Below are positions 12,178-63,711 of a stretch of DNA of 64,000 bases, piece after piece. The notes beneath the pieces were generated by a model. That model saw only the letters and a list, made by a program, of their open reading frames with translations, made no database searches and was not told the origin of the DNA. The translations under genes were made by a program, and so were the position numbers. The DNA comes from Gemmatimonadota bacterium. GTDB lineage: Bacteria > Latescibacterota > UBA2968 > GCA-2709665. Within the stretch, counting starts at the first letter, position 1. Each line of letters opens with the position of its first letter. Location: positions 6,526 to 70,525 of the forward strand of contig JAPPJY010000013.1 in the NCBI GenBank assembly GCA_028874335.1. The letters run 5' to 3'.

Positions 12178-12256
12178 GATGCTCGTCTCTCTTTTCGGCT
12201 CATCGCTGACAGATGCCATAGAAAATACGCAATCCACCTTCTCTGTCAAGGATTCA

Positions 12257-12447
12257 CCTCAATTCCGCAAAAGCCGTAACGCGGCACCGCGACGAAACCT
12301 TTCGAAACGGGCCAAAATGGTCATCATGAAGCACGTTTTTTCCGTTCACGTCCAGTGTCCTGGTGTATCCTGGTAATCAGCAGTCTAATCGCCGTTATTA
12401 ACTCGCACATATTCGAACTAACATCCCCGAAAAATGACGAATCAAGG
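12257..12447 (+). mobile_element. MITE-like element, family A, copy 1
   Basis: ~90% identical by manual alignment (about 20 mismatches in ~190 nt) to 48426-48615. Imperfect TIR CCTCAATTCC...GGAATCAAGG. Flanked by the direct repeat TTCA (12253-12256 and 12448-12451). Confidence 0.85.
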
Positions 12448-12479
12448 TTCAGCATTGGAAAAACACAAGGAGCGCGAGG

Positions 12480-15923: not shown

Positions 15924-16646
15924 ATGCGTCCCGCTTCAAAAGAACAGACGCTGGACCTGCGTGAAAAAGGCAAACCCATTAGCGGACAGATACAGGCCAG
16001 CAACCGGCGGCTTTTCATGCAGTTGCACGTCTATGAAAACTGCCCGCGCCCGGACACGCTTGCGGACGCACTCCGCGAATCCGGGATCGACGCCGTCCTG
16101 TACGCGGACCTGAACAATCCATCCGGCGTTGGCATTCTTGCGCTATCCGAATCTCCCGATGCGTTCGCGGGGCAAATCCGCACATTGCTGAATGCCGGTC
16201 CGTTCGCTGAACTTCAACGCAATCCCCACCTCACCATGTTCGGGAGAACCTACGCCCACGGTTACGAGCCCGATCTTTTGGAAACGCTGTTGCGAAAGCC
16301 ACGCAGTAAGGTCCTTAACCCGGACTGGCCCTGGGCCGTATGGTATCCGTTGCGCCGCAAGCCCGAGTTCGGACTGCTGCCTGGTGAGGATCTGCGCGGG
16401 ATTATGGGTGAACATGCCAGAATCGGGCGGGCATACGCCGAGGCAGGTTTTGCCCAGGACATCCGCCTGGCCTGCTATGGCCTGGACCGCAACGACAACG
16501 ACTTCGTCATCGGACTGCTGGGGCCCGAGTTGCACCCGCTCTCGCACGTCGTGCAGGAAATGCGAAAGACCCGGCAGACCGCGCAATACGTGCAATCTCT
16601 CGGACCGTTCTTCGTTGGTAAAGCTGTCTGGCAGACGCCTCTCTAA
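15924..16646 (+). CDS. Chlorite dismutase-family (Cld/HemQ-like) protein
   Basis: WAVWYPLRRKPEF..L...DLRGIMGEHARIG......DIRLACYGLD.NDNDFV.GLLG.EL..LSHVVQEMRKT....Y....GPFFVG is the Cld-family C-terminal domain pattern. Confidence 0.7.
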   Translation: MRPASKEQTLDLREKGKPISGQIQASNRRLFMQLHVYENCPRPDTLADALRESGIDAVLYADLNNPSGVGILALSESPDAFAGQIRTLLNAGPFAELQRNPHLTMFGRTYAHGYEPDLLETLLRKPRSKVLNPDWPWAVWYPLRRKPEFGLLPGEDLRGIMGEHARIGRAYAEAGFAQDIRLACYGLDRNDNDFVIGLLGPELHPLSHVVQEMRKTRQTAQYVQSLGPFFVGKAVWQTPL

Positions 16647-16803
16647 CAGCCCGTTGAAAAAGTCCATCCTGGCTACGGCCGGCCCTTGCGGTCGAAATAC
16701 TGCGTTGCGGTCCCTCGCCGAATCGCAGCCGAATCGCAGGATGGGACTCGGTCGCGCGTCCTGTCTTCGACCTCGCCTGCAGAGCGACTTTATCAACGGA
16801 CTG
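16647..16803 (+). mobile_element. MITE-like element, family C, copy 1
   Basis: TIR CAGCCCGTTGAAAAAGTC...GACTTTATCAACGGACTG. Flanked by CTAA (16643-16646, containing the TAA stop of the Cld-like gene) and CTAA (16804-16807). An inverted full-length copy lies at 37824-37983. Confidence 0.85.
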
Positions 16804-16846
16804 CTAACACCTGGGAAGAAGGACAACAAGGTTACCCGACATTGCC

Positions 16847-33598: not shown

Positions 33599-33633
33599 AA
33601 GCGCGTATCCACCGATTATCGCCGAAACCTTAA

Positions 33634-33703
33634 CAGTCCGTTGACAATGCGGATCTGCAGGCGAGGCAGTGTCCCGTCCCGGATCGGCTCTCTCAACCCA
33701 TTG
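33634..33703 (-). mobile_element. MITE-like element, family C, copy 4 (short, diverged)
   Basis: CAGTCCGTTGACAATGCGGATCTGCAGGCGAGG...GGCTCTCTCAACCCATTG aligns with both ends of 37824-37983. Flanks are TTAA (33630-33633) and TCAA (33704-33707). The latter contains the nusB stop codon. Confidence 0.6.
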
Positions 33704-37770: not shown

Positions 37771-37823
37771 AAACCGCCCTGTATCGCCGGGAAGATGAAT
37801 GGCCAGGCGTGGACGAGGCTTAG

Positions 37824-37983
37824 CAGTCCGTTGGAAAAGTCGCTCTGCAGGCGAGGCCGAGCCATTGTGGTCGAAGACAAGGCGCGCAACCGAGTCCCAT
37901 CCTGCGATTCGGCGAGGGCGCGCAACGCAGTATTTCGACCGCAAGGGCCGGCCGTAGCCCGGATGGGCTTTTTCAACGGGCTG
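37824..37983 (-). mobile_element. MITE-like element, family C, copy 2
   Basis: Reverse complement of 16647-16803 along its whole length. Flanks are TTAG (37820-37823) and TTAC (37984-37987). The latter contains the TAA stop of the upstream minus-strand gene. Confidence 0.85.
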
Positions 37984-40053
37984 TTACTTGAGGTCGACCG
38001 TCGCTGTGCCTACCCCCACGTTGCCCAGCGCATCGGTCGCACGGACGACGACCGTGTATTCCCCCGCCGCCAGATCCTGAATTTCGAAACGCAAGGATTC
38101 CGTTCTGGAGTCGAATATACGATCGACTGGAAAGACCACCTTCCACGCTCCTGAATTCACCGCATAGGCCGCTTTCCAGAGCGGGCTCGCGGCGTCGTTC
38201 AGCGATCCCTCGATACGTACCCCGCCTGCAACCTGCCGTATCTGCAGCGCGACGGAGGGTGGTGTGTGGTCAAGATCGAACGGCCGGCTGACCATCTCGC
38301 CTGCCAGCGCGGTCTCCTCCGGATTGGTCAACCTGTCCGACGCCACCAACCGGACCAGCATCGTACCCTCGGGCGCGGACTCCGTGTGCCAATCGAAGGA
38401 ATTCGAACGCAGGTTTTCTTCCAGGAGTTTCCATCTTTTCTCGGACAGACCCCGATAGTACAACGCATATACCAGCCCGTCGTTATTCGCGTCTTCCGCT
38501 TTCCATGAGATCCGCCAGACGCCCCTCTGGTTATCTGGCGCCTTTCGGCCCTTTCCGGGGTCCTTAGGCGCAGCGCCGTTGCCCTGCGCCTCGATGGGTG
38601 AGACGACGAGTGCGAGGACCCGCGGGCCCAGATTTTCCTGAAGTCCCACCAGACTCACTTCGCGAATCGTCGGAGTGGTCGTACCCGCCACGGATCTCAA
38701 CTCGGCCCGATACTGGAGGAATCTCGCAGGCGGACTGGATACCTGTCCTCCCTGGGAGACCGAAGACCATTCACTCCAGGTGTTGTCCGGTTTTACGCTG
38801 TTTCCCGAACGGGTCTGGAATTGAACGGACGCATCCGGGGCAGGTTCGGCATTCCACCTGATTTTACCCCATCTGGACACGAGGTGGAAATCTCTCACCC
38901 TGGATTCCAGCCTGCCTTCGCGCGCGAACGCCTTTCCCAACCGATACACTTTTCCGGCTCCAGCGGTTCCCAACCAGAAGTCCCCGGAGTTTGACCGGCA
39001 GAACACCCATGGTTGAACGTCTTTCAGCCGGGTCAGCAGCGTCGCCCTGCCGGACAGGTCCACGCGATAGATGCTCCCCCTGTCTCCAGTCAGCACCGTA
39101 ATCTCCCGATCGTCCGCATGCAATGCCAGAAGCATCGGCTCGTCCACCGTCCATAGACGAACCGCCGCACCCGAAGGGCGTATCGCATACAGCACGGAAG
39201 CCTGCCGGGAGGAAGCGGACCCCTGGCCCTTGGCGGATTGTTGAGACGCGCCCTTTCCGCCCCCCTTCGAACGTTTGGACATTGCGCCCGCGAACAGGGT
39301 CCCATCCGTTCCCATCGCCAGCGCGTGGATTTCATCTTCCGCGGCGTCGTACAATACTTCCACCCTTCCCGCAACGTTGACACGGTAGACCAGTCCGCTC
39401 TGGTCCGTGCCGGCGTACACCCTGCCGCCGGCGTCCCGGATCAGCGACACCACATTGTGGTCTTCGCTTTTATATACCTCGTCGACCTCTCCCGCCGCGG
39501 AGATGCGCAGGATTCGTCCGTGTCTGCCGCCGGTGGCCGCGTACAGGCCTCCGTTTCCATCCACAACCAACGCCCAGACGTGTTCGTCTCCGGTTCGACA
39601 AAACGTCTCGGGTTCTTTGCCCTGAACGATCCTGTATACAATACCGTCCGGGGAGGAGCCGGCATAGAGTGTCCCGTCCGTTCCCACCGCGAGACTGAAA
39701 ATGGCCACTTCGGGCGAATCGAAGAGGAGCGTCGGCTCTCCCGCGCCATCAAAGGCGAAAATCTTCCCGCCGTTGCCCGTTGCAATAAACAGGCGACCGC
39801 CTCGCCCCTCCGCGAGTGCCCAGACGAATTCCTCTCCCGTATTCGCCGCGACCTGCAACTCGGGCGCCAGCAACACCGCGCCGTCTCTGGTTATTGAGAC
39901 ACCGTCGGCTTCGCCCCTGGCGAAGGCCTTCTGCGTGTGGTCGCGCCATACGACAGGCTCAACGCCGTCCGTTGGAATCAGAAGGCAGTTGAGCAGAAAG
40001 CACAGGCTCATCAGCAATATACGATAAACGGCATGTCGATTTTCTCGATCCAA
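37984..40053 (-). CDS. Secreted beta-propeller protein with C-terminal Fn3/Ig-like domains, hypothetical
   Basis: N-terminal hydrophobic signal/anchor. About 7 repeats of the L(Y/F)AG(T/S)..G.(I/V)YR(I/V) type. C-terminal Ig-like segment ...YTVVVRATDALGNVG. Confidence 0.7.
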   Translation of the reverse strand: MDRENRHAVYRILLMSLCFLLNCLLIPTDGVEPVVWRDHTQKAFARGEADGVSITRDGAVLLAPELQVAANTGEEFVWALAEGRGGRLFIATGNGGKIFAFDGAGEPTLLFDSPEVAIFSLAVGTDGTLYAGSSPDGIVYRIVQGKEPETFCRTGDEHVWALVVDGNGGLYAATGGRHGRILRISAAGEVDEVYKSEDHNVVSLIRDAGGRVYAGTDQSGLVYRVNVAGRVEVLYDAAEDEIHALAMGTDGTLFAGAMSKRSKGGGKGASQQSAKGQGSASSRQASVLYAIRPSGAAVRLWTVDEPMLLALHADDREITVLTGDRGSIYRVDLSGRATLLTRLKDVQPWVFCRSNSGDFWLGTAGAGKVYRLGKAFAREGRLESRVRDFHLVSRWGKIRWNAEPAPDASVQFQTRSGNSVKPDNTWSEWSSVSQGGQVSSPPARFLQYRAELRSVAGTTTPTIREVSLVGLQENLGPRVLALVVSPIEAQGNGAAPKDPGKGRKAPDNQRGVWRISWKAEDANNDGLVYALYYRGLSEKRWKLLEENLRSNSFDWHTESAPEGTMLVRLVASDRLTNPEETALAGEMVSRPFDLDHTPPSVALQIRQVAGGVRIEGSLNDAASPLWKAAYAVNSGAWKVVFPVDRIFDSRTESLRFEIQDLAAGEYTVVVRATDALGNVGVGTATVDLK

Positions 40054-48122: not shown

Positions 48123-48425
48123 CCCTTTACCCTCAATGAATGAGACCGCGATCGGCGGCAGCGTATGGAATCAGTCCTTGCCCGCCCTGCCCCGCCCGGC
48201 GTGATCCGGCGCCTCCTGACGCCGTCAGTGCCTGAACCGCGGGACACACAGAATATACCCAATGCTCCGGCTGAATCAACCCCGCGCAAACCCAACTTGA
48301 CATTACGGTGTTCCGTCCCATAAATTCCTCACCATTCTTGGGCCGATGTAACACAGGAACACAAACCCGGGACAGGCGGCCAATCTCCGATCCCTTACCC
48401 GTGACGGGTTTCCGGGAGGCATTAG

Positions 48426-48615
48426 CCTCAATTCCGCAAAAGCCGCAACGCGGCACCGCGACGAAACCCTTCGAAACAGGCCGAAATGGTCGTCATGAAG
48501 GACATTCTTTCAGTTCACGTACAGTGTCCCGGTGTATCCTGGTAATCAGCAGTTTAATCGCCTTTTTAACTGACACATATTCGAATTAACGTCCTCGAAA
48601 AATGAGGAATCAAGG
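48426..48615 (+). mobile_element. MITE-like element, family A, copy 2
   Basis: See copy 1. Flanked by TTAG (48422-48425) and TTAG (48616-48619). It ends 6 nt before the SDR start codon. Confidence 0.85.
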
Positions 48616-48621
48616 TTAGAT

Positions 48622-54442: not shown

Positions 54443-55705
54443 GTGGACATCTTGAAAGATCTGGATTTTCGGGGGTACCTCTTTCAGGTAACCGATCCCG
54501 ACGGACTCGAAGCGCGGCTGGCCGGCGGGCCCATAACGCTTTATTCAGGGTTCGACCCCACGGCCGACAGTTTGCACGTGGGCAACCTGATACCCATTCT
54601 CGGATTGCGGCGGTTTCAACTGGCCGGGCATCATGCGATCGGGCTTATCGGGGGAGGCACGGGTCTGATAGGCGATCCGAGCGGCAGCAAGGAAGAACGT
54701 CCGTTGAACCCGCCCGAGTTGATCGCGGAATATACGGGAAGACTCGCAGAGCAACTCGCCAGGTTTCTCGATTTTGAGACCGGAGCCAATCCCGCCCGGG
54801 TGGTCAGCAATCTGGGATGGCTCTCCGAACTGAAGGCGATCGACTTCCTGAGGGACACGGGCAAGCACTTCTCCATGGGCTATATGCTGGCGAAAGAGTC
54901 CGTGGCTTCCCGGCTGGAAACCGGAATCTCATTCACCGAGTTCAGCTATATGGTCATTCAGGCCTATGATTTCATGGAGTTGTTTCAGGCGCACGGATGC
55001 GAGCTCCAGATTGGCGGGAGCGATCAATGGGGCAATATTACAGCGGGAATCGAACTGATCCGGCGCCGGCTGGGCGGACAGGCGCACGGCCTGACGTTTC
55101 CACTGCTTGAGAAGGCAGACGGCTCCAAGTTCGGAAAGACGGCATCCGGCACCGTCTGGCTCGACGCTGGAAAAACGACGCCCTACCAGTTTTACCAGCA
55201 TTGGATCAATACGGACGACCGGGACGTCGTGTCGTTTCTGAAGCTGTTTACCTTTCTCTCCGGGAATGAAATCAGGAATCTGGAAACGGAAGTGACAGAA
55301 CATCCCGAAAAGCGAGAGGCGCAGCGGGTGCTGGCCGAGGAAGTCACCACGCTCGTACATGACAGATCCGCCACCGAAAGGGCGCGGCGGATTTCCGACG
55401 CGTTGTTCTACGGGGAACTGAGGGACCTGAGTGCGCGAGAGATCGAGGAAGGGTTCAGCGACGTGCCGTCTCAGGCGCTCAATGGCGTTTCAGGCGTGGG
55501 ACTGATGGATCTGCTGGTCAACGTCGGCATTTCATCTTCCATGCGCCAGGCGCGGGAAGATATCCGGTCCGGCGCGATATACGTCAATGGCCGGCGTTGC
55601 GCCGATACGGGCATGATGCTTGAACCCTCGGACAGAATCGCCGGCAGATACGTGGTCGTGCGCCGGGGCAAACGCCGCTACTTTCTCGTGCGCTGGAATC
55701 TCTGA
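54443..55705 (+). CDS. tyrS: Tyrosine--tRNA ligase
   Basis: GTG start. GFDPTADSLHVGNL (HIGH), KFGKTASG (KMSKS-like), C-terminal S4 domain. Confidence 0.95.
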   Translation: MDILKDLDFRGYLFQVTDPDGLEARLAGGPITLYSGFDPTADSLHVGNLIPILGLRRFQLAGHHAIGLIGGGTGLIGDPSGSKEERPLNPPELIAEYTGRLAEQLARFLDFETGANPARVVSNLGWLSELKAIDFLRDTGKHFSMGYMLAKESVASRLETGISFTEFSYMVIQAYDFMELFQAHGCELQIGGSDQWGNITAGIELIRRRLGGQAHGLTFPLLEKADGSKFGKTASGTVWLDAGKTTPYQFYQHWINTDDRDVVSFLKLFTFLSGNEIRNLETEVTEHPEKREAQRVLAEEVTTLVHDRSATERARRISDALFYGELRDLSAREIEEGFSDVPSQALNGVSGVGLMDLLVNVGISSSMRQAREDIRSGAIYVNGRRCADTGMMLEPSDRIAGRYVVVRRGKRRYFLVRWNL

Positions 55706-55711
55706 CCTGAG

Positions 55712-55793
55712 AAGCTGTCTTTAAATTCCCCGCGGTCTTCGCGCGGCTGCGAAAGCGGCGGTCGGGAACTCACCGGTAATTTTAAAACAGCTT
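55712..55793 (+). mobile_element. MITE-like element, family B, copy 1 (internal-deletion derivative)
   Basis: AAGCTGTCTTTAAATTCCCCGCGG...GGTAATTTTAAAACAGCTT. It contains only the two ends of the 186-nt copy at 59413-59598. Flanked by the perfect 5-bp direct repeat CTGAG (55707-55711 and 55794-55798). Confidence 0.9.
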
Positions 55794-55888
55794 CTGAGGA
55801 CGCGCGGCCGCGGATGCGTATCGAAGAGCGGTGCAGATGATTAACAGCCGAAACCCATCGTGAATGTCATCAGGAGAGGAACCTTTCA

Positions 55889-56866
55889 ATGAAAGCACCC
55901 TGGATCACCTATCGGCCGGAACTCAAGGTATTGGACTGTACGATTCGAGACGGCGGATTGATGAACGACCACCAGTTTTCCAATGATTTCGTAAAGGCCG
56001 TTTATGAGACCTGCGTCGACGCGGGCGTCGACTATATGGAAATCGGGTACCGGAACTCCAAAGAGATGTTTCCGAAAAAGCAATTCGGAGCCTTCCGGCA
56101 CAGCGACGAAGAAGATATCCGCAGGATCACGGGGGACCACGACCCTGAAACCACCGGCCTGAAGCTTGCCATCATGGCCGATGCCGGCAAAAGCGACTGG
56201 GCGGAAGATATCCTGCCGGCCAGCGAAAGCGTGGTCAGCATGGTACGGGTGGCCTGCTACGTCGAGCAGATTCCCGAGACCGTTGAAATGCTCTGCGACG
56301 CCCACGAGAAAGGATATGAAACCAGCTGCAACATCATGGCCATTTCGACCGTGCAGGAAGTGGAGATCGATCAGGCGCTGGAGGTCCTTGTCGAAACGCC
56401 GGTGGGTACAATATGTGTCGTCGACAGCTTCGGCGCATTGTACCGCGAGCAGGTGGATATGCTCATCCGGAAGTATATGGATGCCGTCGAAGGAATGGGA
56501 AAGGAAGTGGGCATTCACGCGCACAACAACCAGCAACTGGCATTCGCCAATACCATCGAAGCGCTTATCCTGGGCGCCAACCGCGTTGATGCCACGGTGG
56601 ACGGACTTGGCCGCGGCGCCGGGAATTGCCCGCTCGAACTGCTGCTCGGCTTCCTTCGCAATCCAAAATTCAAGATTCGACCCGTCTACAAGCTGCTGGA
56701 AGCCCACTTTGTCGGATTGCGCGAGCAATTGACGTGGGGGCCTCTGGTGCCGTACAACATCACGGGACAGCACAACCAGCATCCCCGCTCGGCGATGGCG
56801 CTTCTGGACGGGGACGACCGCGACCGCTATCTGGCGTTCTACGATCAGGTGATGAGGGATATCTAG
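55889..56866 (+). CDS. DRE-TIM metallolyase (HMGL-like/pyruvate carboxyltransferase-domain aldolase), function unknown
   Basis: AGGAGAGGA precedes the ATG at 55889. [10 protein letters not shown]..., [32 protein letters not shown] are HMGL-like metal-binding motifs. Its stop TAG overlaps the trpB GTG (TAGTG). Confidence 0.8.
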
Positions 56867-58071
56867 TGCTCAACAGAGATGAAGCCGCACGGACGTGGCC
56901 CGATGCCAGGGGACACTTCGGACCCTACGGCGGGCGCTATGTGCCGGAGACGTTGATGCCGTTGCTCGAGGACCTGGAATCAGCCTACCGCGACGCGAGT
57001 GACCGTCCGGATTTCCGCGAGGAACTGGACCGTTATCTCAGGGAATTTGTCGGAAGGCCCACGTCACTCTATTTCGCACAGCGACTGACCGAAGAACTGG
57101 GCGGGGCCAGAATCTATCTGAAACGGGAGGACCTCGCCCACACCGGCGCGCACAAGATAAACAACACGATGGGGCAGATTCTGCTTGCCAGGCGCATGGG
57201 AAAAACACGGATCATCGCCGAAACGGGCGCCGGGCAGCACGGTGTGGCGACGGCGACCGTAGCTGCGATGTTCGGACTGAAGTGCGAGATTTACATGGGC
57301 ACCGAGGACATGGACCGGCAGGCGTTGAATGTGTTCCGGATGCGGCTCCTGGGCGCCAAAGTAACCGGCGTGGAATCGGGAAGCAGGACGCTCAAGGATG
57401 CGATCAACGAGGCAATCCGGGACTGGGTGACGAACGTGGACGATACGTTCTATATTTTCGGATCCGTCCTGGGACCTCACCCGTATCCGATGATCGTACG
57501 GGATTTTCAACGGGTGATCGGGGTGGAGACCCGCGCGCAGATCCTGCGGGCCGAAGGCCGGTTGCCGGACTGTCTGATCGCATGTGTCGGCGGCGGCAGC
57601 AATTCGATGGGGCTGTTTCACGCGTTTCTGGACGATGCGGACGTGCGCATGATCGGCGTCGAAGCGGGAGGCCATGGCATTGCCTCCGGCGACCACGCCG
57701 CCCGGTTTCAGGGAGGAGATCTCGGCGTGTTGCACGGGGCGAGGATCTACCTCCTGCAGGACGAGGACGGGCAGATCGCACTGACCCATTCGGTATCGGC
57801 AGGCCTGGACTATTCCGGCGTGGGCCCCGAGCACTGTCTCCTGCGGGATGAGGGCCGGATCGAGTATGCGTATGCAACCGACGACGAAGCCCTGAAGGGG
57901 TTTCAACTGTTGAGTCGCACGGAGGGTATCATTCCAGCACTGGAAAGCGCGCACGCGATCGCGCACGTGTCGAAAGCGGCGCCGGCAATGGACAGGGATG
58001 CTATAATCGTGGCGAATCTCTCAGGCCGCGGCGACAAGGACGTACAGCAGGCGGCGAAGTACCTGGACTGA
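56866..58071 (+). CDS. trpB: Tryptophan synthase beta chain
   Basis: GTG at 56866 in ORF 56626..58071. [24 protein letters not shown] (PLP Lys), [21 protein letters not shown]. Confidence 0.95.
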
Positions 58072-58272
58072 CCATGATTCGTATGTTTTCGGGTACGTTA
58101 ATTCGTATATGTGCAAGTAGATAAAGGCGATTAAACTGCGGATTACCAGGATAAACCTGGTCACTGGACGTGAACGGAAGAAATGGCCTACCTGACAACC
58201 ATTTCGGCCCGTTTCGGAAAGTTTCGTCGCGGTGCCGCGTTGCGGTTTTTGCGGAATTAAGGCTAACAGCCC
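58072..58272 (-). mobile_element. MITE-like element, family A, copy 3
   Basis: Reverse complement aligns end to end with copies 1 and 2. Flanks are CTGA (58068-58071, containing the trpB TGA stop) and CTAA (58273-58276). Confidence 0.85.
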
Positions 58273-58313
58273 GTTTGGTTTACCGGGCCGGGTCGAATCA
58301 CGGAGTTGTACTG

Positions 58314-59126
58314 ATGACGAGGATCGGGAGACGGTTCGAAGCGTTGAAGAAAGCGGGAACGACCGGGTTCGTCGCCTATATCACGGCCGGAGACCCGGAT
58401 ATGGCAACCACCCGGAAATTCGTACCGGAGCTGGAAAGGCGCGGGGTGGACATACTTGAGCTGGGCGTTCCGTTCTCCGATCCGCTGGCGGACGGACCTG
58501 AGATCCAGGCGGCCTCGCAGCGGGCGCTGAGGCATCGCGTTTCCATCGGCGACGTCATGGACCTGGTGGCGGTTCTGCGGCAGGAGTCCGAGATACCCAT
58601 TGTCCTGTTTACGTATTTCAATCCGATGCACCGCTTCGGTCTCAAACGGCTTGTCGACAGAGCGGCCGAAGCGGGGGTGGACGGCATTCTGGCGCTGGAT
58701 CTTCCACCGGAAGAGGCGGGGGAGTACAAGGGTCTGATGGAGAAACGGGGACTGGATACGATTTTTCTCATCGCGCCCACCAGCCGCGAGGACCGCATTC
58801 GACGAATCGCGTCTCACACCAGCGGATTCGTGTATTACGTGTCCCGCACCGGCGTGACCGGGGAGCGGGACCGCCTGGAGGAAACACTGGGCGAAAGGGT
58901 GGCGGCAATCCGGCGACACACCTCGCAACCGGTAGCTGTCGGATTCGGGATTTCGACGCCCGAACAGTCCGGTGAGGTTGCGGGTTACGCGGATGCGGTT
59001 GTGGTTGGCAGCGCAATCGTGCGACGGATCGCACAGCGGCAGTCCGACCCGGATCTCGTTTCCCACATCGGGGATTTCGTCGAAGAACTGGTGCAACCGC
59101 TGAAGGGAGCATCCGATGGATCTTGA
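58314..59126 (+). CDS. trpA: Tryptophan synthase alpha chain
   Basis: Met 58314. FVAYITAGDPD, LELGVPFSDPLADGP, GFVYYVS..GVTG, GFGIS. Confidence 0.95.
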   Translation: MTRIGRRFEALKKAGTTGFVAYITAGDPDMATTRKFVPELERRGVDILELGVPFSDPLADGPEIQAASQRALRHRVSIGDVMDLVAVLRQESEIPIVLFTYFNPMHRFGLKRLVDRAAEAGVDGILALDLPPEEAGEYKGLMEKRGLDTIFLIAPTSREDRIRRIASHTSGFVYYVSRTGVTGERDRLEETLGERVAAIRRHTSQPVAVGFGISTPEQSGEVAGYADAVVVGSAIVRRIAQRQSDPDLVSHIGDFVEELVQPLKGASDGS

Positions 59127-59385
59127 AGACTGGCGCAGGGAAATCGACATCCTGGACCAGAAGCTGCTGGAGCTTCTGAATCGACGAGCCGAATGCGCCA
59201 TGGAAATCGGCAGGATCAAGCAGGCTATCGAACAACCGATCTTCGTGCCGGAACGTGAGAAGTCGATCCTGAACCGGATACTTGAACTGAACGAGGGGCC
59301 CACGGACGACGAGGCGGTGCGACGGATCTTTCAGCAGATCATCGATGAGTCCAGGCGCCTCATGCAGAAGAATCAGGAAAGCTAA
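59116..59385 (+). CDS. AroQ-class chorismate mutase
   Basis: AAGGGAG precedes the ATG at 59116. LEDWRREIDILDQKLLELLNRRAECAMEIGRIK......P.RE..IL is the CM type 2 helix pattern. 11-nt overlap with trpA. Confidence 0.85.
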   Translation: MDLEDWRREIDILDQKLLELLNRRAECAMEIGRIKQAIEQPIFVPEREKSILNRILELNEGPTDDEAVRRIFQQIIDESRRLMQKNQES

Positions 59386-59412
59386 TCAGGGGCGAACCTT
59401 TCTAAACCTTAG

Positions 59413-59598
59413 AAGCTGTCTTAAAATTCCCAGCGGTCTTCGCACGGCTGCAAAAGCGCCGGTCGGCGTTGGGCAAATCCACCCAAGAGTGGCGAGGGGC
59501 GCGCAGCCACGATACATTGAATATGGGCGGATTCTCCCGCCTTGACCGCCGCTTTTTCGCTCGTGCTCGGGAACTCACCGGTAATATTAAAACAGCTT
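59413..59598 (+). mobile_element. MITE-like element, family B, copy 2 (full length)
   Basis: TIR AAGCTGTCTTAAAATTCC...GGTAATATTAAAACAGCTT. Flanked by the perfect 5-bp direct repeat CTTAG (59408-59412 and 59599-59603). Confidence 0.9.
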
Positions 59599-59668
59599 CT
59601 TAGCTCGAGATCGGTCGGGACGTTTCGTCACGTTTGAAGAACGAGGTTAGTCACGGAGTCGGCAGCGC

Positions 59669-60697
59669 ATGGCATTCACGAAAAACATGAAGATACCCAC
59701 GCCGGAAGCCGTTCTGGACAAGATGCCGCTTCCGAAGAACCTGAAGGGTATAAAGGAGCAGCGGGATGCGGAAATCAGCGACGTCTTCGCGCGCAGGAGC
59801 CGGAAGTTTCTCCTTGTGATCGGCCCCTGCTCCGCGCACAATGAAGACGCCGTGTGTGAATACGTCTCCCGGTTGGCGAAACTGCAGGAGGCCGTCCGGG
59901 AGACGCTGATTCTCGTGCCCCGACTCTATACCAACAAACCCCGCACAACCGGCGAGGGATACAAAGGCATGGGACATCAGCCGGACCCGCGAAAGGCGCC
60001 AGACATGTCCGAGGGCATCTACGCGGTCCGTCAGATGCACATCCGGGCGGTCCGGGAATCCCACCTGACGGCGGCCGACGAAATGCTCTATCCGGGCAAT
60101 CTGCCGTACGTCGAGGACCTGCTGAGCTATATAGCCGTGGGCGCCCGGTCGGTAGAAAACCAGCAACACCGATTGACCTGCAGCGGCGTAGACGTACCCG
60201 TTGGAATGAAGAACCCGACGGGAGGAGATCTTTCGGTTATGCTGAACGCGATTCATGCCTCCCAGATCCCGCACGTCTTCATCTATAACGGCTGGGAGGT
60301 ACGCACCGACGGCAATCCCATGACGCACGCCGTGCTTCGCGGCGCCGTGGACGTAACCGGGCGCAGCATACCGAACTACCATTTCGAGGACCTCATGTAC
60401 GCGGCGGAACTGTATCGGCAGCGGCCGCTCGCCAACGCCGCGATCGTCGTGGATACGAATCACAATAACTCGGGCAAGCAGTTCAGTGAACAGCCGCGGA
60501 TCGGGTTGGAAGTGATACGCAGCCGGCAGAATTCGGCGTTCCTGAACGACATGATCCGCGGATTGATGGTGGAGAGCCATCTGGTTGAGGGGGCGCAAGA
60601 CGTCAATGACGGCGTGTACGGCAAATCCATTACCGATCCATGCCTGGGGTGGGAAGATACCGAGGCGTTCGTAAAGGAACTGGCCGAGGGGATATGA
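59669..60697 (+). CDS. aroG: 3-deoxy-7-phosphoheptulonate (DAHP) synthase, class I-alpha type
   Basis: LLVIGPCSAHN, KPRTT, GARSVENQQHR, VGMKNP, DTNHNNSGKQ, MVESHLVEGAQ, YGKSITDPCLGWEDT. The motifs match the E. coli AroG-type pattern from memory. Confidence 0.9.
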   Translation: MAFTKNMKIPTPEAVLDKMPLPKNLKGIKEQRDAEISDVFARRSRKFLLVIGPCSAHNEDAVCEYVSRLAKLQEAVRETLILVPRLYTNKPRTTGEGYKGMGHQPDPRKAPDMSEGIYAVRQMHIRAVRESHLTAADEMLYPGNLPYVEDLLSYIAVGARSVENQQHRLTCSGVDVPVGMKNPTGGDLSVMLNAIHASQIPHVFIYNGWEVRTDGNPMTHAVLRGAVDVTGRSIPNYHFEDLMYAAELYRQRPLANAAIVVDTNHNNSGKQFSEQPRIGLEVIRSRQNSAFLNDMIRGLMVESHLVEGAQDVNDGVYGKSITDPCLGWEDTEAFVKELAEGI

Positions 60698-60775
60698 TCG
60701 CGAACGGGACCGGAAGGCAGGAACCGACCCGAACGTCCCGCGGGAGCTTTCGCCTCCGCCTCCGAGGATGACCGC

Positions 60776-61888
60776 ATGGCCAACGATCCTCCTTTTGCGC
60801 GCGATGCGATTGCAGTTGTCGGGGTGGGGCTGATTGGCGGTTCGCTCGGGCTGGCGCTCAAGGGTCTGGGCATCGGAAGTCGTATCGTCGGCATCAGCCG
60901 GCAGGAGACCCTGGACGCGGCCTTCGCGCTGGATGTTATCGACGCGGGCTATCGCTATGAGGACCTCGAATCCGGGATTCGCGATGCGGCGCTGGTTTTC
61001 CTGTGCACGCCCATCGTCCGTATTCTGGACATGCTGCCTGAGGTGCTGGGAGCGGCGCGGCAGGATGCGCTCGTGACGGATGTCGGCAGCACCAAGCATG
61101 CGATTGTCTCCACGGCGACGGCCCACGCACGGGATGGCGTGCATTTCGTCGGCGGGCACCCGATGGCCGGTTCCGAGCATCGCGGGGTGGGCGCGGCGGA
61201 CCCGTTCCTTTTTCAGAATGCGATTTATGTGTTGACGCCGTCGCCGGACACGCCCGATATCGTGGTTGAAAAGCTCGCGCGTCTCGTAAGGGCGTTCGGG
61301 GCCAGACCGATGAAGATGACGCCCCGGGAACACGACCGCGCGGCGGCGGCGGTAAGCCACCTGCCGCAGATGATGGCCACAAGCCTGGTGTCCATGGTCG
61401 GAAGGATGACGGAAGACGAAGGGCTGCCGATTCGAATGGCGGCGGGGGGGTTTCGGGACCTGACGCGCATTGCTTCCAGTCCATATGAAATGTGGCGGGA
61501 CATCTGCCATACGAACGCGGCCCCGATCCGGGAGATGATCGATCTTTATATAGAGTCGCTTTCGGCAATTCGCTCGGCCGTGGACCGCGAACGCCTGGAA
61601 CAGGCATTTGCCTATGCGAATCGAATACGCGGACAGATCCCGAAGGACTCCAAGGGATTCCTGCATCCACTGCACGAAATCCTCCTCCTGGCGGAGGACA
61701 GGCCGGGCGTGATCGCCCACGTCGCCAGGACACTGGCCGGAGAGAATATCAACATAAACGACATCGAGGTGCTGAACGTGCGCGAGGGGGAAGGGGGCAC
61801 GATTCGGATGGGGTTCGATTCACGTTCGTGCGCGGAACGAGCCGTTGACGTACTGGCGAAAGCGGGCTACAGCGTGAGATTGAGATAA
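60776..61888 (+). CDS. tyrA: Prephenate dehydrogenase with C-terminal ACT domain
   Basis: IAVVGVGLIGGSLG Rossmann motif, GGHPMAGSE, C-terminal ACT-like LLLAEDRPGVIAHVARTLAGENINI. Confidence 0.9.
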   Translation: MANDPPFARDAIAVVGVGLIGGSLGLALKGLGIGSRIVGISRQETLDAAFALDVIDAGYRYEDLESGIRDAALVFLCTPIVRILDMLPEVLGAARQDALVTDVGSTKHAIVSTATAHARDGVHFVGGHPMAGSEHRGVGAADPFLFQNAIYVLTPSPDTPDIVVEKLARLVRAFGARPMKMTPREHDRAAAAVSHLPQMMATSLVSMVGRMTEDEGLPIRMAAGGFRDLTRIASSPYEMWRDICHTNAAPIREMIDLYIESLSAIRSAVDRERLEQAFAYANRIRGQIPKDSKGFLHPLHEILLLAEDRPGVIAHVARTLAGENININDIEVLNVREGEGGTIRMGFDSRSCAERAVDVLAKAGYSVRLR

Positions 61889-61889
61889 G

Positions 61890-62048
61890 AAGCTGTTTTA
61901 AAATTCCTGGTGAGTCCCGAGCGCGAGCGAAAATGTGTCGGTCAAGGCGGGCAAAGGCGCCCATATTTGGGTATACGGGTGCTTTTGACCAACGCAGACC
62001 GACGGGTTTGCAGCCGCGCGAAGACCGCTGGGGGTTTTAAGACAGCTT
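61890..62048 (-). mobile_element. MITE-like element, family B, copy 3 (inverted)
   Basis: Aligns with the reverse complement of 59413-59598 at both ends; the centre is partly diverged or deleted. Flanks are ATAAG (61885-61889, containing the tyrA TAA stop) and CTAAA (62049-62053). Confidence 0.85.
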
Positions 62049-62131
62049 CTAAAGCGTAAGATCCGGAGACGATTGAACCGGAAAGATCGCTTTCCCTCCG
62101 CTGGCGACCGCATTATAAAGAAGGCCTCGTA

Positions 62132-63430
62132 TTGGAACTCACGGCGTCGGGAATCTCCGAAGATAGCATCAAACCATCGCCCGGGCTCAAGGGGGTTACC
62201 GACCTCCCCGGCGATGCTGAACTTTCGATAATCGCCCTCGCCCTTGCGTCCACGGCCGACGGGATTTCCGAAGTGCGCAGGTGTTCGCGAAGACGCGACG
62301 TCGAGCGAACCGGTGAGTTGCTGTCGGAACTCGGGATTATGGTGGCGCGGGACGGTGAGACCGCTACGGTAACCGGCGCGCCGTTCCGGGCGACGGACAA
62401 TGTGCTGAATGTGGACGGTTCCCTTATCCTGTTTTCCTGTCTGGCGGGATTGCTGTCGAGCGCCCCATTTGTAACGAGGCTCTCCGGGGTTCAGACGGAA
62501 GACGGCGTCGACCGGGTTGCCAAGGCGCTTCGATCGCTGGGCGCGCACGTGAATATTTCGGTTACGGACGGGATATCGGCCGGTGTTGGCGGGTCAAGGT
62601 TGGCGCCCGGATCCTACCGCGTCGGACGTCCCGACCTGGCGGTGAAATGCGGCGTACTGATGGCAGGGCTGGGTGTGGACGGGCCGGTTGAACTCCTTCA
62701 GGACACCGGCGGGGACGACGATCTGGAAGTGTTGCTCCGGGCCGCGGGATGCGATCTGAAGAAGAAGCGGATCAAGGAGGACGGAGGTTATCAGTTGTTG
62801 ATGGAAGGACCCGCGCGGCTCCGCGCCGCTACCCATGAGCTGCCGGGAAGTCCGGACGCCGGGTTGTTTCTCGCCCTGGCTGCGGCGATGCTGAATCAGT
62901 CCGATCTGACGTTAAGCCATTTCGGAATGGACTCGAGAAGCCGCAGGATCGTGGACATACTGCGCAGGATGAACGTGGCTATGGATGTGACCCATTTCCG
63001 GACGGATTCCGGTTTCCCTGCCCGGAACTTACGGATCAGGGGGTCCGACCTGCGCGGCATAAGAATCGCGGGCGCGAACGCGCGACTGATGCGGGACGTG
63101 CTCCCACTCGTGGCGGTCGCAGGCGCCGTTTCCCGGGGCGAAACCATAATTCGGGATGCCGGGGCATTGAGGAATGGACCGGTTGACTGTATTTCGGTTC
63201 TCGTGGAGAACCTGAGGAAGATGGACATTCAAGTGGGAGAGATGCCGGACGGGCTGGTTGTGAAGGGGGGACAACCTCAAGGCGACGAGCTCGATGCCGC
63301 CGGCGACGCCCGCGTGTCCATGGCGCTCCGGCTGGCAGCGCTGGCCAGCGAGGGGGACACGCTCGTCAGGAATCCCGGGCCCGTGGATCAGGGGATGATG
63401 GACCGGCTGGCGTCAGTACAGAAAGCGTAG
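62132..63430 (+). CDS. EPSP synthase-fold protein with most canonical active-site motifs substituted
   Basis: Homology to 3-phosphoshikimate 1-carboxyvinyltransferase is clear along its length (LPGD...,  LRSLGA, LPGSPDAGLFLALAAAM, GDARVSMAL). However, PGDKSISHR reads PGDAELSII, GNSGTTxR reads DGSLILFS, KVKExDR reads RNGPVDC, and DHR reads DAR. TTG start is uncertain. Confidence 0.7.
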   Translation: MELTASGISEDSIKPSPGLKGVTDLPGDAELSIIALALASTADGISEVRRCSRRRDVERTGELLSELGIMVARDGETATVTGAPFRATDNVLNVDGSLILFSCLAGLLSSAPFVTRLSGVQTEDGVDRVAKALRSLGAHVNISVTDGISAGVGGSRLAPGSYRVGRPDLAVKCGVLMAGLGVDGPVELLQDTGGDDDLEVLLRAAGCDLKKKRIKEDGGYQLLMEGPARLRAATHELPGSPDAGLFLALAAAMLNQSDLTLSHFGMDSRSRRIVDILRRMNVAMDVTHFRTDSGFPARNLRIRGSDLRGIRIAGANARLMRDVLPLVAVAGAVSRGETIIRDAGALRNGPVDCISVLVENLRKMDIQVGEMPDGLVVKGGQPQGDELDAAGDARVSMALRLAALASEGDTLVRNPGPVDQGMMDRLASVQKA

Positions 63431-63523: not shown

Positions 63524-63664
63524 ATGAGACTGGTTGTCAGGTTATTCCTTCTGGCGCTGCTGGTGTTCCTGGGAGGCGTGGTCTTCATTCGGTACACCTA
63601 CAACTGTTCGTGGAAAGAGAGTTTCGCCATTGCCGACCAGTTTGTGTCGGACCTGACCCGTTGA
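63524..63664 (+). CDS. Small single-TM protein (46 aa), hypothetical
   Basis: GAGGAGAG (63511-63518) precedes the ATG at 63524. MRLVVRLFLLALLVFLGGVVFIRYTYN... Confidence 0.4.
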   Translation: MRLVVRLFLLALLVFLGGVVFIRYTYNCSWKESFAIADQFVSDLTR

Positions 63665-63711
63665 TAACGTCGCTCCGCAGGCGAGGCCGGTTGGGCTTTT
63701 TCGACGGGCTG
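63654..63711 (-). mobile_element. MITE-like element, family C, copy 3 (mini, internal deletion)
   Basis: GACCCGTTGATAACGTCGCTCCGCAGGCGAGGCCGG|TTGGGCTTTTTCGACGGGCTG joins the two ends of 37824-37983. No clean target duplication is visible. Confidence 0.6.

Follow-up and report, generated by a model that had tools for sequence, protein, structure and literature searches.

The window, i.e. the whole stretch of 64,000 nt that was analysed (C84:6526-70525), belongs to a 5.43-Mb assembly of 96 contigs and 59% G+C (genome G000). It contains an aromatic operon with all genes on the + strand, in the order TyrS, HMGL-like aldolase, TrpB, TrpA, chorismate mutase, DAHP synthase, prephenate dehydrogenase and EPSP-synthase-like protein. 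Three gaps of this operon are occupied by copies of one repeat, hereafter family B:

54443-55705, + strand: TyrS, stop codon TGA at 55703-55705, just upstream of the left triplet of copy 1
55711-55794, + strand: copy 1, 84 nt, internal-deletion derivative, between tyrS and the HMGL-like gene; target triplet TGA, read directly at 55708-55710 (left) and 55795-55797 (right)
59116-59385, + strand: chorismate mutase
59412-59599, + strand: copy 2, 188 nt, 162-nt core plus a loop module 'A' of ~26 nt, in the gap between chorismate mutase and DAHP synthase; target triplet TTA at 59409-59411 (left) and 59600-59602 (right)
60776-61888, + strand: prephenate dehydrogenase (tyrA)
61889-62049, - strand: copy 3, 161 nt, subfamily 2 (CCCCC variant), inverted, in the gap between tyrA and the EPSP-synthase-like gene; target triplet TAA at 61886-61888 (left) and 62050-62052 (right), the left one being the stop codon of tyrA

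An earlier note on this DNA had placed three copies after tyrS, chorismate mutase and tyrA within the aromatic operon. The copies are real, their places and strands were right and the gene coordinates agree, but each copy is one base longer per end (G...C) than was drawn, the true termini being GAAGCTGT...ACAGCTTC. The terminal inverted repeats (TIRs), given as perfect, are so only in the outer 8 nt; the 19-nt arms GAAGCTGTCTTAAAATTCC and GAAGCTGTTTTAAAATTAC differ at 2-3 positions. Allowing up to 3 mismatches, the 19-nt terminus GAAGCTGTYTTAAAATTCC was identified six times in the window against 0.01 expected, and the six matches form three convergent pairs, hence three elements; a repeat search of the window recovers the same pairs. 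Copy 1 joins the ~55 nt at the start of the long form to its last ~29 nt, with a TCGG microhomology at the junction, so that the description of the short copy as the joined ends of a long one holds for the full 84 nt.

Family B comprises ~130-150 copies in G000, and the possibility raised in the earlier note that the element might be absent elsewhere in the genome is set aside by 244 matching termini. From these, 90 complete copies of 43-213 nt were recovered in discrete size classes: 161-163 nt (49 copies), 185-189 nt (29 copies), 210-213 nt (4 copies), 84 nt (4 copies) and one copy each of 43, 69, 76 and 114 nt. Some 20 more copies are truncated. No transposase was found inward of the unpaired internal termini in G000, all of which are truncated copies. 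A further 36 termini are located at 180 nt or less from a contig end, so that 36 of the 192 contig ends in this MAG fall inside a copy (e.g. C13:1-117, C71:1-117 and C53:1-51). Family B thus breaks the assembly and is a main cause of its fragmentation.

The alignment of the copies shows a core of 162 nt, to which the longer forms add the GC-rich loop module of ~26 nt in either orientation and, in some cases, a second module of 24 nt. Two subfamilies are distinguished by the sequence that follows the TIR, TTCCCA or CCCCCA. The loop module CGAGGGGCGCGCAG was considered as an independent nested repeat and ruled out, being found only inside family B copies. Copies of the main subfamily have a mean divergence of 3.3% from the consensus and no two are identical. 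The four 84-nt copies of G000 are at different loci with one common junction (GGTCGG-GAACTC), and three of them have identical flanking triplets, which indicates that the miniature form itself transposed. A 43-nt element (C31:12329-12371) contains little beyond two joined terminal repeats (GAAGCTGTGTTAAAATTACCGGTGGGGATTTTAAGACAGCTTC), is flanked by TGA and TAA, and may represent family B in its minimal form.

When G...C is taken as the element boundary, 51 of the 90 complete copies have identical flanking 3-mers, 49 of them being TNA (TAA in 23, TTA in 15, TGA in 8 and TCA in 3, with two others outside this pattern). In 59 copies both flanks are TNA; their middle bases agree in 49 of these and are complementary in none, so the triplet is duplicated directly and does not belong to an extended TIR. 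Among the 39 copies without identical flanks most have TNA on both sides with one base of difference, which fits the age of the copies. Read in element orientation, position -4 is C in 58% of the copies and position +4 is G in 49%; in unoriented counts C precedes the triplet in 45 of 90 and G follows it in 51 of 90. The target preference is C-TNA-G. Element-oriented triplets are TTA 29 times and TAA 9 times, with CC favoured on the left, and since the copies have no bias relative to genes this skew would reflect an asymmetric recognition of the target.

The earlier note had proposed a MITE with termini AAGCTGT...ACAGCTT and 5-bp CTNAG duplications, implying a parent insertion sequence (IS) from a family that makes 5-bp duplications. 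The 5-mers that flank the three window copies read as it wrote them, two of the three copies have identical CTNAG 5-mers, and the empty site CTTAG in the related locus L018 agrees with both lengths. However, the note looked to additional copies for a check, and at most of them the 5-mers are not duplicated: identical 5-mers were identified at only 15 of the 90 complete copies, well below the count for 3-mers, and by this genome-wide count the 5-bp model is already refuted. Copy 3 and many others have neighbours different from C and G and yet perfect TNA repeats, as do the related IS copies described below, whose 3-bp TNA duplications have varied neighbours (e.g. atcTTA...TTAgag). At copy 3 the flanks ATAAG/CTAAA, described as decayed, contain an intact 3-bp TAA/TAA duplication. 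At copies 1 and 2 the C-TNA-G target and the element's own terminal G and C mimic a duplication of CTNAG. A parent making 5-bp duplications therefore has next to no credibility.

Related loci, labelled Candidatus Latescibacterota, were found via TyrS, and exact empty sites were identified at all three window positions; the insertion polymorphism between relatives that had been suggested as a check is thus seen. Site 1 is filled in L015/G008 with the orthologous 84-nt form and empty in L016, L045, L018, L019 and L024. Site 2 is filled in L015/G008 (212 nt) and in L019 (188 nt, inverted loop) and empty in L018/G014, where a single TTA is present (GAACC-TTA-GCTCGAG). Site 3 is filled only in the window and empty in L015, L017, L018, L024 and L045. 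The flanks of 12 further copies of G000 were joined into reconstructed empty sites and searched in four genomes of the genus. In G008, the closest, 5 sites are filled, 6 empty and 1 gave no match; in G002 none is filled, 11 are empty and 1 is interrupted by something else; G014 and G010 have 2 and 4 filled sites, respectively, most of the rest being empty and some ambiguous. In the reverse test several insertions of other genomes were found empty in G000. Together, these tests indicate that most insertions are younger than the split of these species.

Site 2 holds three internal forms in three species: 188 nt in the window (59412-59599), 212 nt with an extra hairpin module of 24 nt in L015 (10750-10961), and 188 nt with the central loop of ~40 nt reverse-complemented in L019 (11219-11406). 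They would be explained by an inversion of the loop or by in-place gene conversion, or else by repeated insertions at a single hot spot. The orthologous 84-nt copies (window 55711-55794 and L015 7269-7352) differ at 3 positions and their flanks of 400 nt are identical; the copy at site 2 is likewise more diverged than its own flanks. The palindrome itself may thus change faster or undergo conversion. The identity of the flanks between G000 and G008 is a mosaic at the 12 sampled loci, 93-99% at shared insertions and 83-96% at unshared ones, and suggests recombination between these species-level lineages.

The correction of the duplication from 5 to 3 bp altered the family assignment and led directly to a partner IS. 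A TNA triplet with C before and G after indicates the IS1031 group (IS5 family) rather than a maker of 5-bp duplications. Members of the IS1031 group are ~850-950 bp long. Among 11 relatives, two loci of G015, from the sister genus, contain the termini of family B around a DDE_Tnp_1 frame. This element is 929 or 956 bp long, starts with GAAGCCGTTTTAAAATT, ends with the reverse complement of GAAGCTGTTTTAAAAAG and is flanked by TTA/TTA at both copies. It codes for a single frame of 276-285 aa that matches NF033580 'IS5 family transposase' with 240.7 bits (cut-off 110) and comprises the domains DUF4096 (PF13340), DDE_Tnp_1 (PF01609) and DDE_Tnp_1_2 (PF13586). Homologues with 73-76% identity were identified in a neighbouring family (G029, G039 and G028), in elements of 927-929 bp with GAAG(C/T)TGTTTTAAAA at both ends and perfect TTA or TGA duplications in 5 of 5. 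The partner IS as a whole has the termini GAAGC(C/T)GTTTTAAAA at both ends, of which 15-17 nt are common to family B, and perfect TNA duplications (TTA or TGA) at 7 of 7 copies in genomes and 2 of 3 metagenome copies. The length is 927-929 bp in six copies and 956 bp in one, due to a 27-bp in-frame insert. On plasmids, the closest annotated relatives of the transposase reach only ~45% identity and have no more specific name than 'IS5 family transposase'. An IS with matching ends, which the earlier note had proposed to look for, therefore exists and makes TNA duplications; the expected 5-bp duplications are not its own, and it resides outside the genome and genus of family B. The likeness between MITE and IS is limited to the terminal 15-18 nt (26 at most), which means that a simple deletion within the IS now seen would not produce family B.

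The MITE is present in all 15 species genomes of the genus (G000-G014), with 19-163 first-look candidates each, and in the sister genus, with 63 and 219 candidates; none was found in three other genera of the family. The partner transposase was not identified (E <= 0.001) in any of the 15 genomes of the genus, about half of which are closed or nearly closed assemblies, and the same query matches G015 and other genomes as a positive control. In G000 neither tblastn nor blastn gave a DNA or protein trace of the partner IS, and DUF4096 (PF13340) and DDE_Tnp_4 (PF13359) had no match. The only two DDE_Tnp_1 (PF01609) frames of G000 (476 and 493 aa, IS4-like) were rejected as the partner because no matching termini lie nearby. 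Metagenome contigs with transposases of 87-96% identity were rejected as a source within the genus; their flanks are only 65-77% identical to G000 and they belong to other genera. The MITE was absent from viral contigs, and no close transposase was found on viral contigs or plasmids (nearest 45% identical or less). Family B was amplified separately in the lineages of the genus; in G000 and all 15 species it is an orphan and probably immobile now. The simplest reading is that the enzyme was lost after the bursts, with which the mean copy divergence agrees.

Across the genus (G000-G014) the MITE load and the IS load look inverse. The MITE-rich genomes have 0-2 DDE_Tnp_1 hits (G014 with 163 candidates and 0 hits, G008 with 133 and 1, G000 with 163 and 2), and the MITE-poor ones have many (G007 with 47 candidates and 39 hits, G013 with 46 and 34, G009 with 27 and 18).

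Family B is very probably a non-autonomous DNA transposon (MITE), mobilised in trans by a DDE transposase that an IS of the IS1031 group (IS5 family) encodes. The earlier note was right to read it as a MITE with an internal-deletion derivative produced by miniaturisation, as genome-wide abundance and exact empty sites indicate. The transposase would bind the terminal inverted repeats of 15-17 bp (GAAGCTGTYTTAAAA), and the element would be cut out and inserted at a TNA triplet, preferably C-TNA-G, via a staggered cut of 3 nt whose repair would duplicate the triplet. Only the ends seem to be needed, because the ends-only derivative of 84 nt, and possibly the single one of 43 nt, also spread. As the genome and the genus contain no cognate transposase, we infer mobilisation by the partner IS from the common termini and target. 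The copies now seen would be the leftover of lineage-specific bursts ~3% of sequence divergence ago, persisting where they are harmless: between genes, including the aromatic operon, and on stop codons regenerated by the duplication. Transcribed copies would add a long hairpin to the mRNA.

The structure of this hairpin is relevant to the question of a host function. The consensus folds as one full-length hairpin (-69.5 kcal/mol, z -6.3), as does copy 2 with its 188 nt (one long hairpin, -74 kcal/mol, z -3.3), and the 84-nt form gives -36.1 kcal/mol (z -3.9). When the MFE structure of a single sequence was tested across 49 copies, 95% of the cells pair; RNAalifold did not return the full-length hairpin. 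In these 49 copies changes on both sides affect 7 pairs, among them U6-A158 to C-G (4 copies), G34-C128 to A-U (7 copies) and a private A3-U161 to G-C; shuffles give 2.8 +/- 0.8 such pairs and slid controls 1-2. This is only a hint of covariation in the arms, since shared descent may produce much of it and mismatched intermediates are common. No Rfam covariance model matched in window positions 55000-63000 (E <= 1), and a scan for promoters and terminators found no such site inside any copy. Orientation relative to genes has no bias, with 24 same and 23 opposite in tandem gaps and 14 and 15, respectively, next to stop codons. The stop codon of a gene is targeted and regenerated by 13 of the 90 copies; a special preference for stop codons was rejected, 9-13% being expected among tolerated TNA sites (p = 0.10), and the coincidence follows from TNA targeting plus purifying selection.

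These data bear on the possibility that the host recruited the hairpin as a structural module of RNA or DNA in operons, i.e. an mRNA stabiliser or processing site comparable to REP/BIME or Correia elements, and kept by selection. The folding of the whole element and the two-sided changes, which a purely selfish element does not need, would be in line with it, as would the presence in one aromatic operon of three family B copies plus one of another family and the filling of site 2 in several species with different internal variants. On the other hand, orientation is unbiased, most sites are specific to one lineage and unoccupied in close relatives that have the same operon, the 84-nt derivative persists even though most of the hairpin is gone from it, and the covariation counts are inflated by subfamily descent, with mismatched intermediates such as A·C at pair 34-128 in 9 copies. 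Recruitment is thus improbable, and the copies are concluded to be tolerated passengers with no host function indicated; if the operon is transcribed through them, strong hairpins are added to its mRNA. Still less can be said for the view that family B is no transposon but a palindromic repeat, REP-like or of another type, dispersed by recombination or a Y1 (RAYT) transposase: it is indeed palindromic, intergenic and of high copy number, but REPs are 20-40 nt long, have no target duplications and are not bounded by TIRs of IS type, whereas family B duplicates TNA, has exact empty sites and ends in the same termini as a DDE IS, so that this origin is barely conceivable.

Within the reading as a MITE, it is unlikely that family B kept moving in the genus without a cognate transposase, as the ~20-160 copies per species at mostly private sites might suggest. 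Were it still moving, it would be mobilised in trans by a visiting enzyme (e.g. from a plasmid, a phage or a repeatedly purged, transient IS invasion), or else by a host activity on the extruded hairpin, in which case the excess of compensatory changes in the arms would mark a hairpin that is mechanistically required.

Among known systems, the closest is the IS1031 group (IS1031, ISLrh) with its derived MITEs, which like family B have a 3-bp TNA duplication. The group is described as having a TNA target and exclusively 3-bp repeats, and ISLrh is an element of 857 bp with the inverted repeat GAACCTGTCTAGTATCT (PMC12016507). Compared with GAAGCTGTCTTAAAATT of family B, this repeat is identical at 11 of 17 positions, both being terminal repeats of ~17 bp that begin with GAA.CTGT. 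The partner IS (~930 bp, IS5-family DDE transposase of ~270 aa) resembles the group and probably belongs to it, as judged from its size, its target and the general IS5 model. It differs in having a single open frame without an orfA/orfB frameshift. Unlike the MITEs derived from IS1031, family B resembles its partner IS over 15-18 nt only, and this partner is missing from the whole genus that carries family B.

The Tourist-like MITEs and PIF-Harbinger have in common with family B the TNA duplications of 3 bp (often TTA/TAA), short TIRs, high copy number, a fold-back structure and, at superfamily level, a relationship to IS5. They are eukaryotic, with a DDE_Tnp_4 transposase and a Myb-like partner, whereas the partner of family B is a bacterial DUF4096 plus DDE_Tnp_1 protein; a filing under PIF/Harbinger-Tourist was rejected because PF13359 has no match in G000 and the partner IS contains DDE_Tnp_1. 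The Correia elements of Neisseria are also TIR-bounded, ~100-160 nt long and often located in operons, form a hairpin when transcribed, exceed 100 copies, have size classes produced by internal deletion and have no cognate transposase in the host genome. Correia elements have a TA duplication, IHF sites and promoters; family B differs from them by its TNA duplication, the lack of any promoter-like site found and the presence of a matching IS in neighbouring genera. The REP/BIME of enterobacteria are intergenic palindromes in operons that can shape mRNA stability, a possible parallel if family B is co-transcribed, but they are much shorter, lack the anatomy of TIRs plus duplication and are spread by RAYT. 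A filing with REP/BIME was therefore rejected for a repeat of 84-213 nt with TIRs and TNA duplications. In every MITE feature that was tested family B agrees with the type, and the partner IS agrees with the IS1031 group in those features tested for it: this is a genuine but ordinary MITE, a new family of a well-known sort.

A search of one literature library for MITEs in Latescibacterota found no paper. Several intergenic gaps of the aromatic amino-acid operon are filled by family B and might otherwise be taken for regulatory RNAs, and the lineage-specific insertions of the family could be dated on a species tree. Across a whole genus, it offers a clean natural case of a MITE having outlived, or outrun, its own transposase. 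The one aspect that merits further attention is that the transposase is missing genus-wide although the insertions are lineage-specific.

Other repeats are present in the window. A second family of ~200 nt comprises copies at 12252-12449 and 48421-48617 on the + strand and 58068-58266 on the - strand, 84-90% identical, one of which fills the trpB/trpA gap. A third family of ~165 nt is represented by inverted copies at 16644-16807 and 37820-37986, 93-95% complementary, and by shorter partial copies at 33629-33669 and 63658-63711. Finally, a tandem array of 8-nt units (TCGTATTC / TCGCCTAT) is located near the window start, at 153-235.
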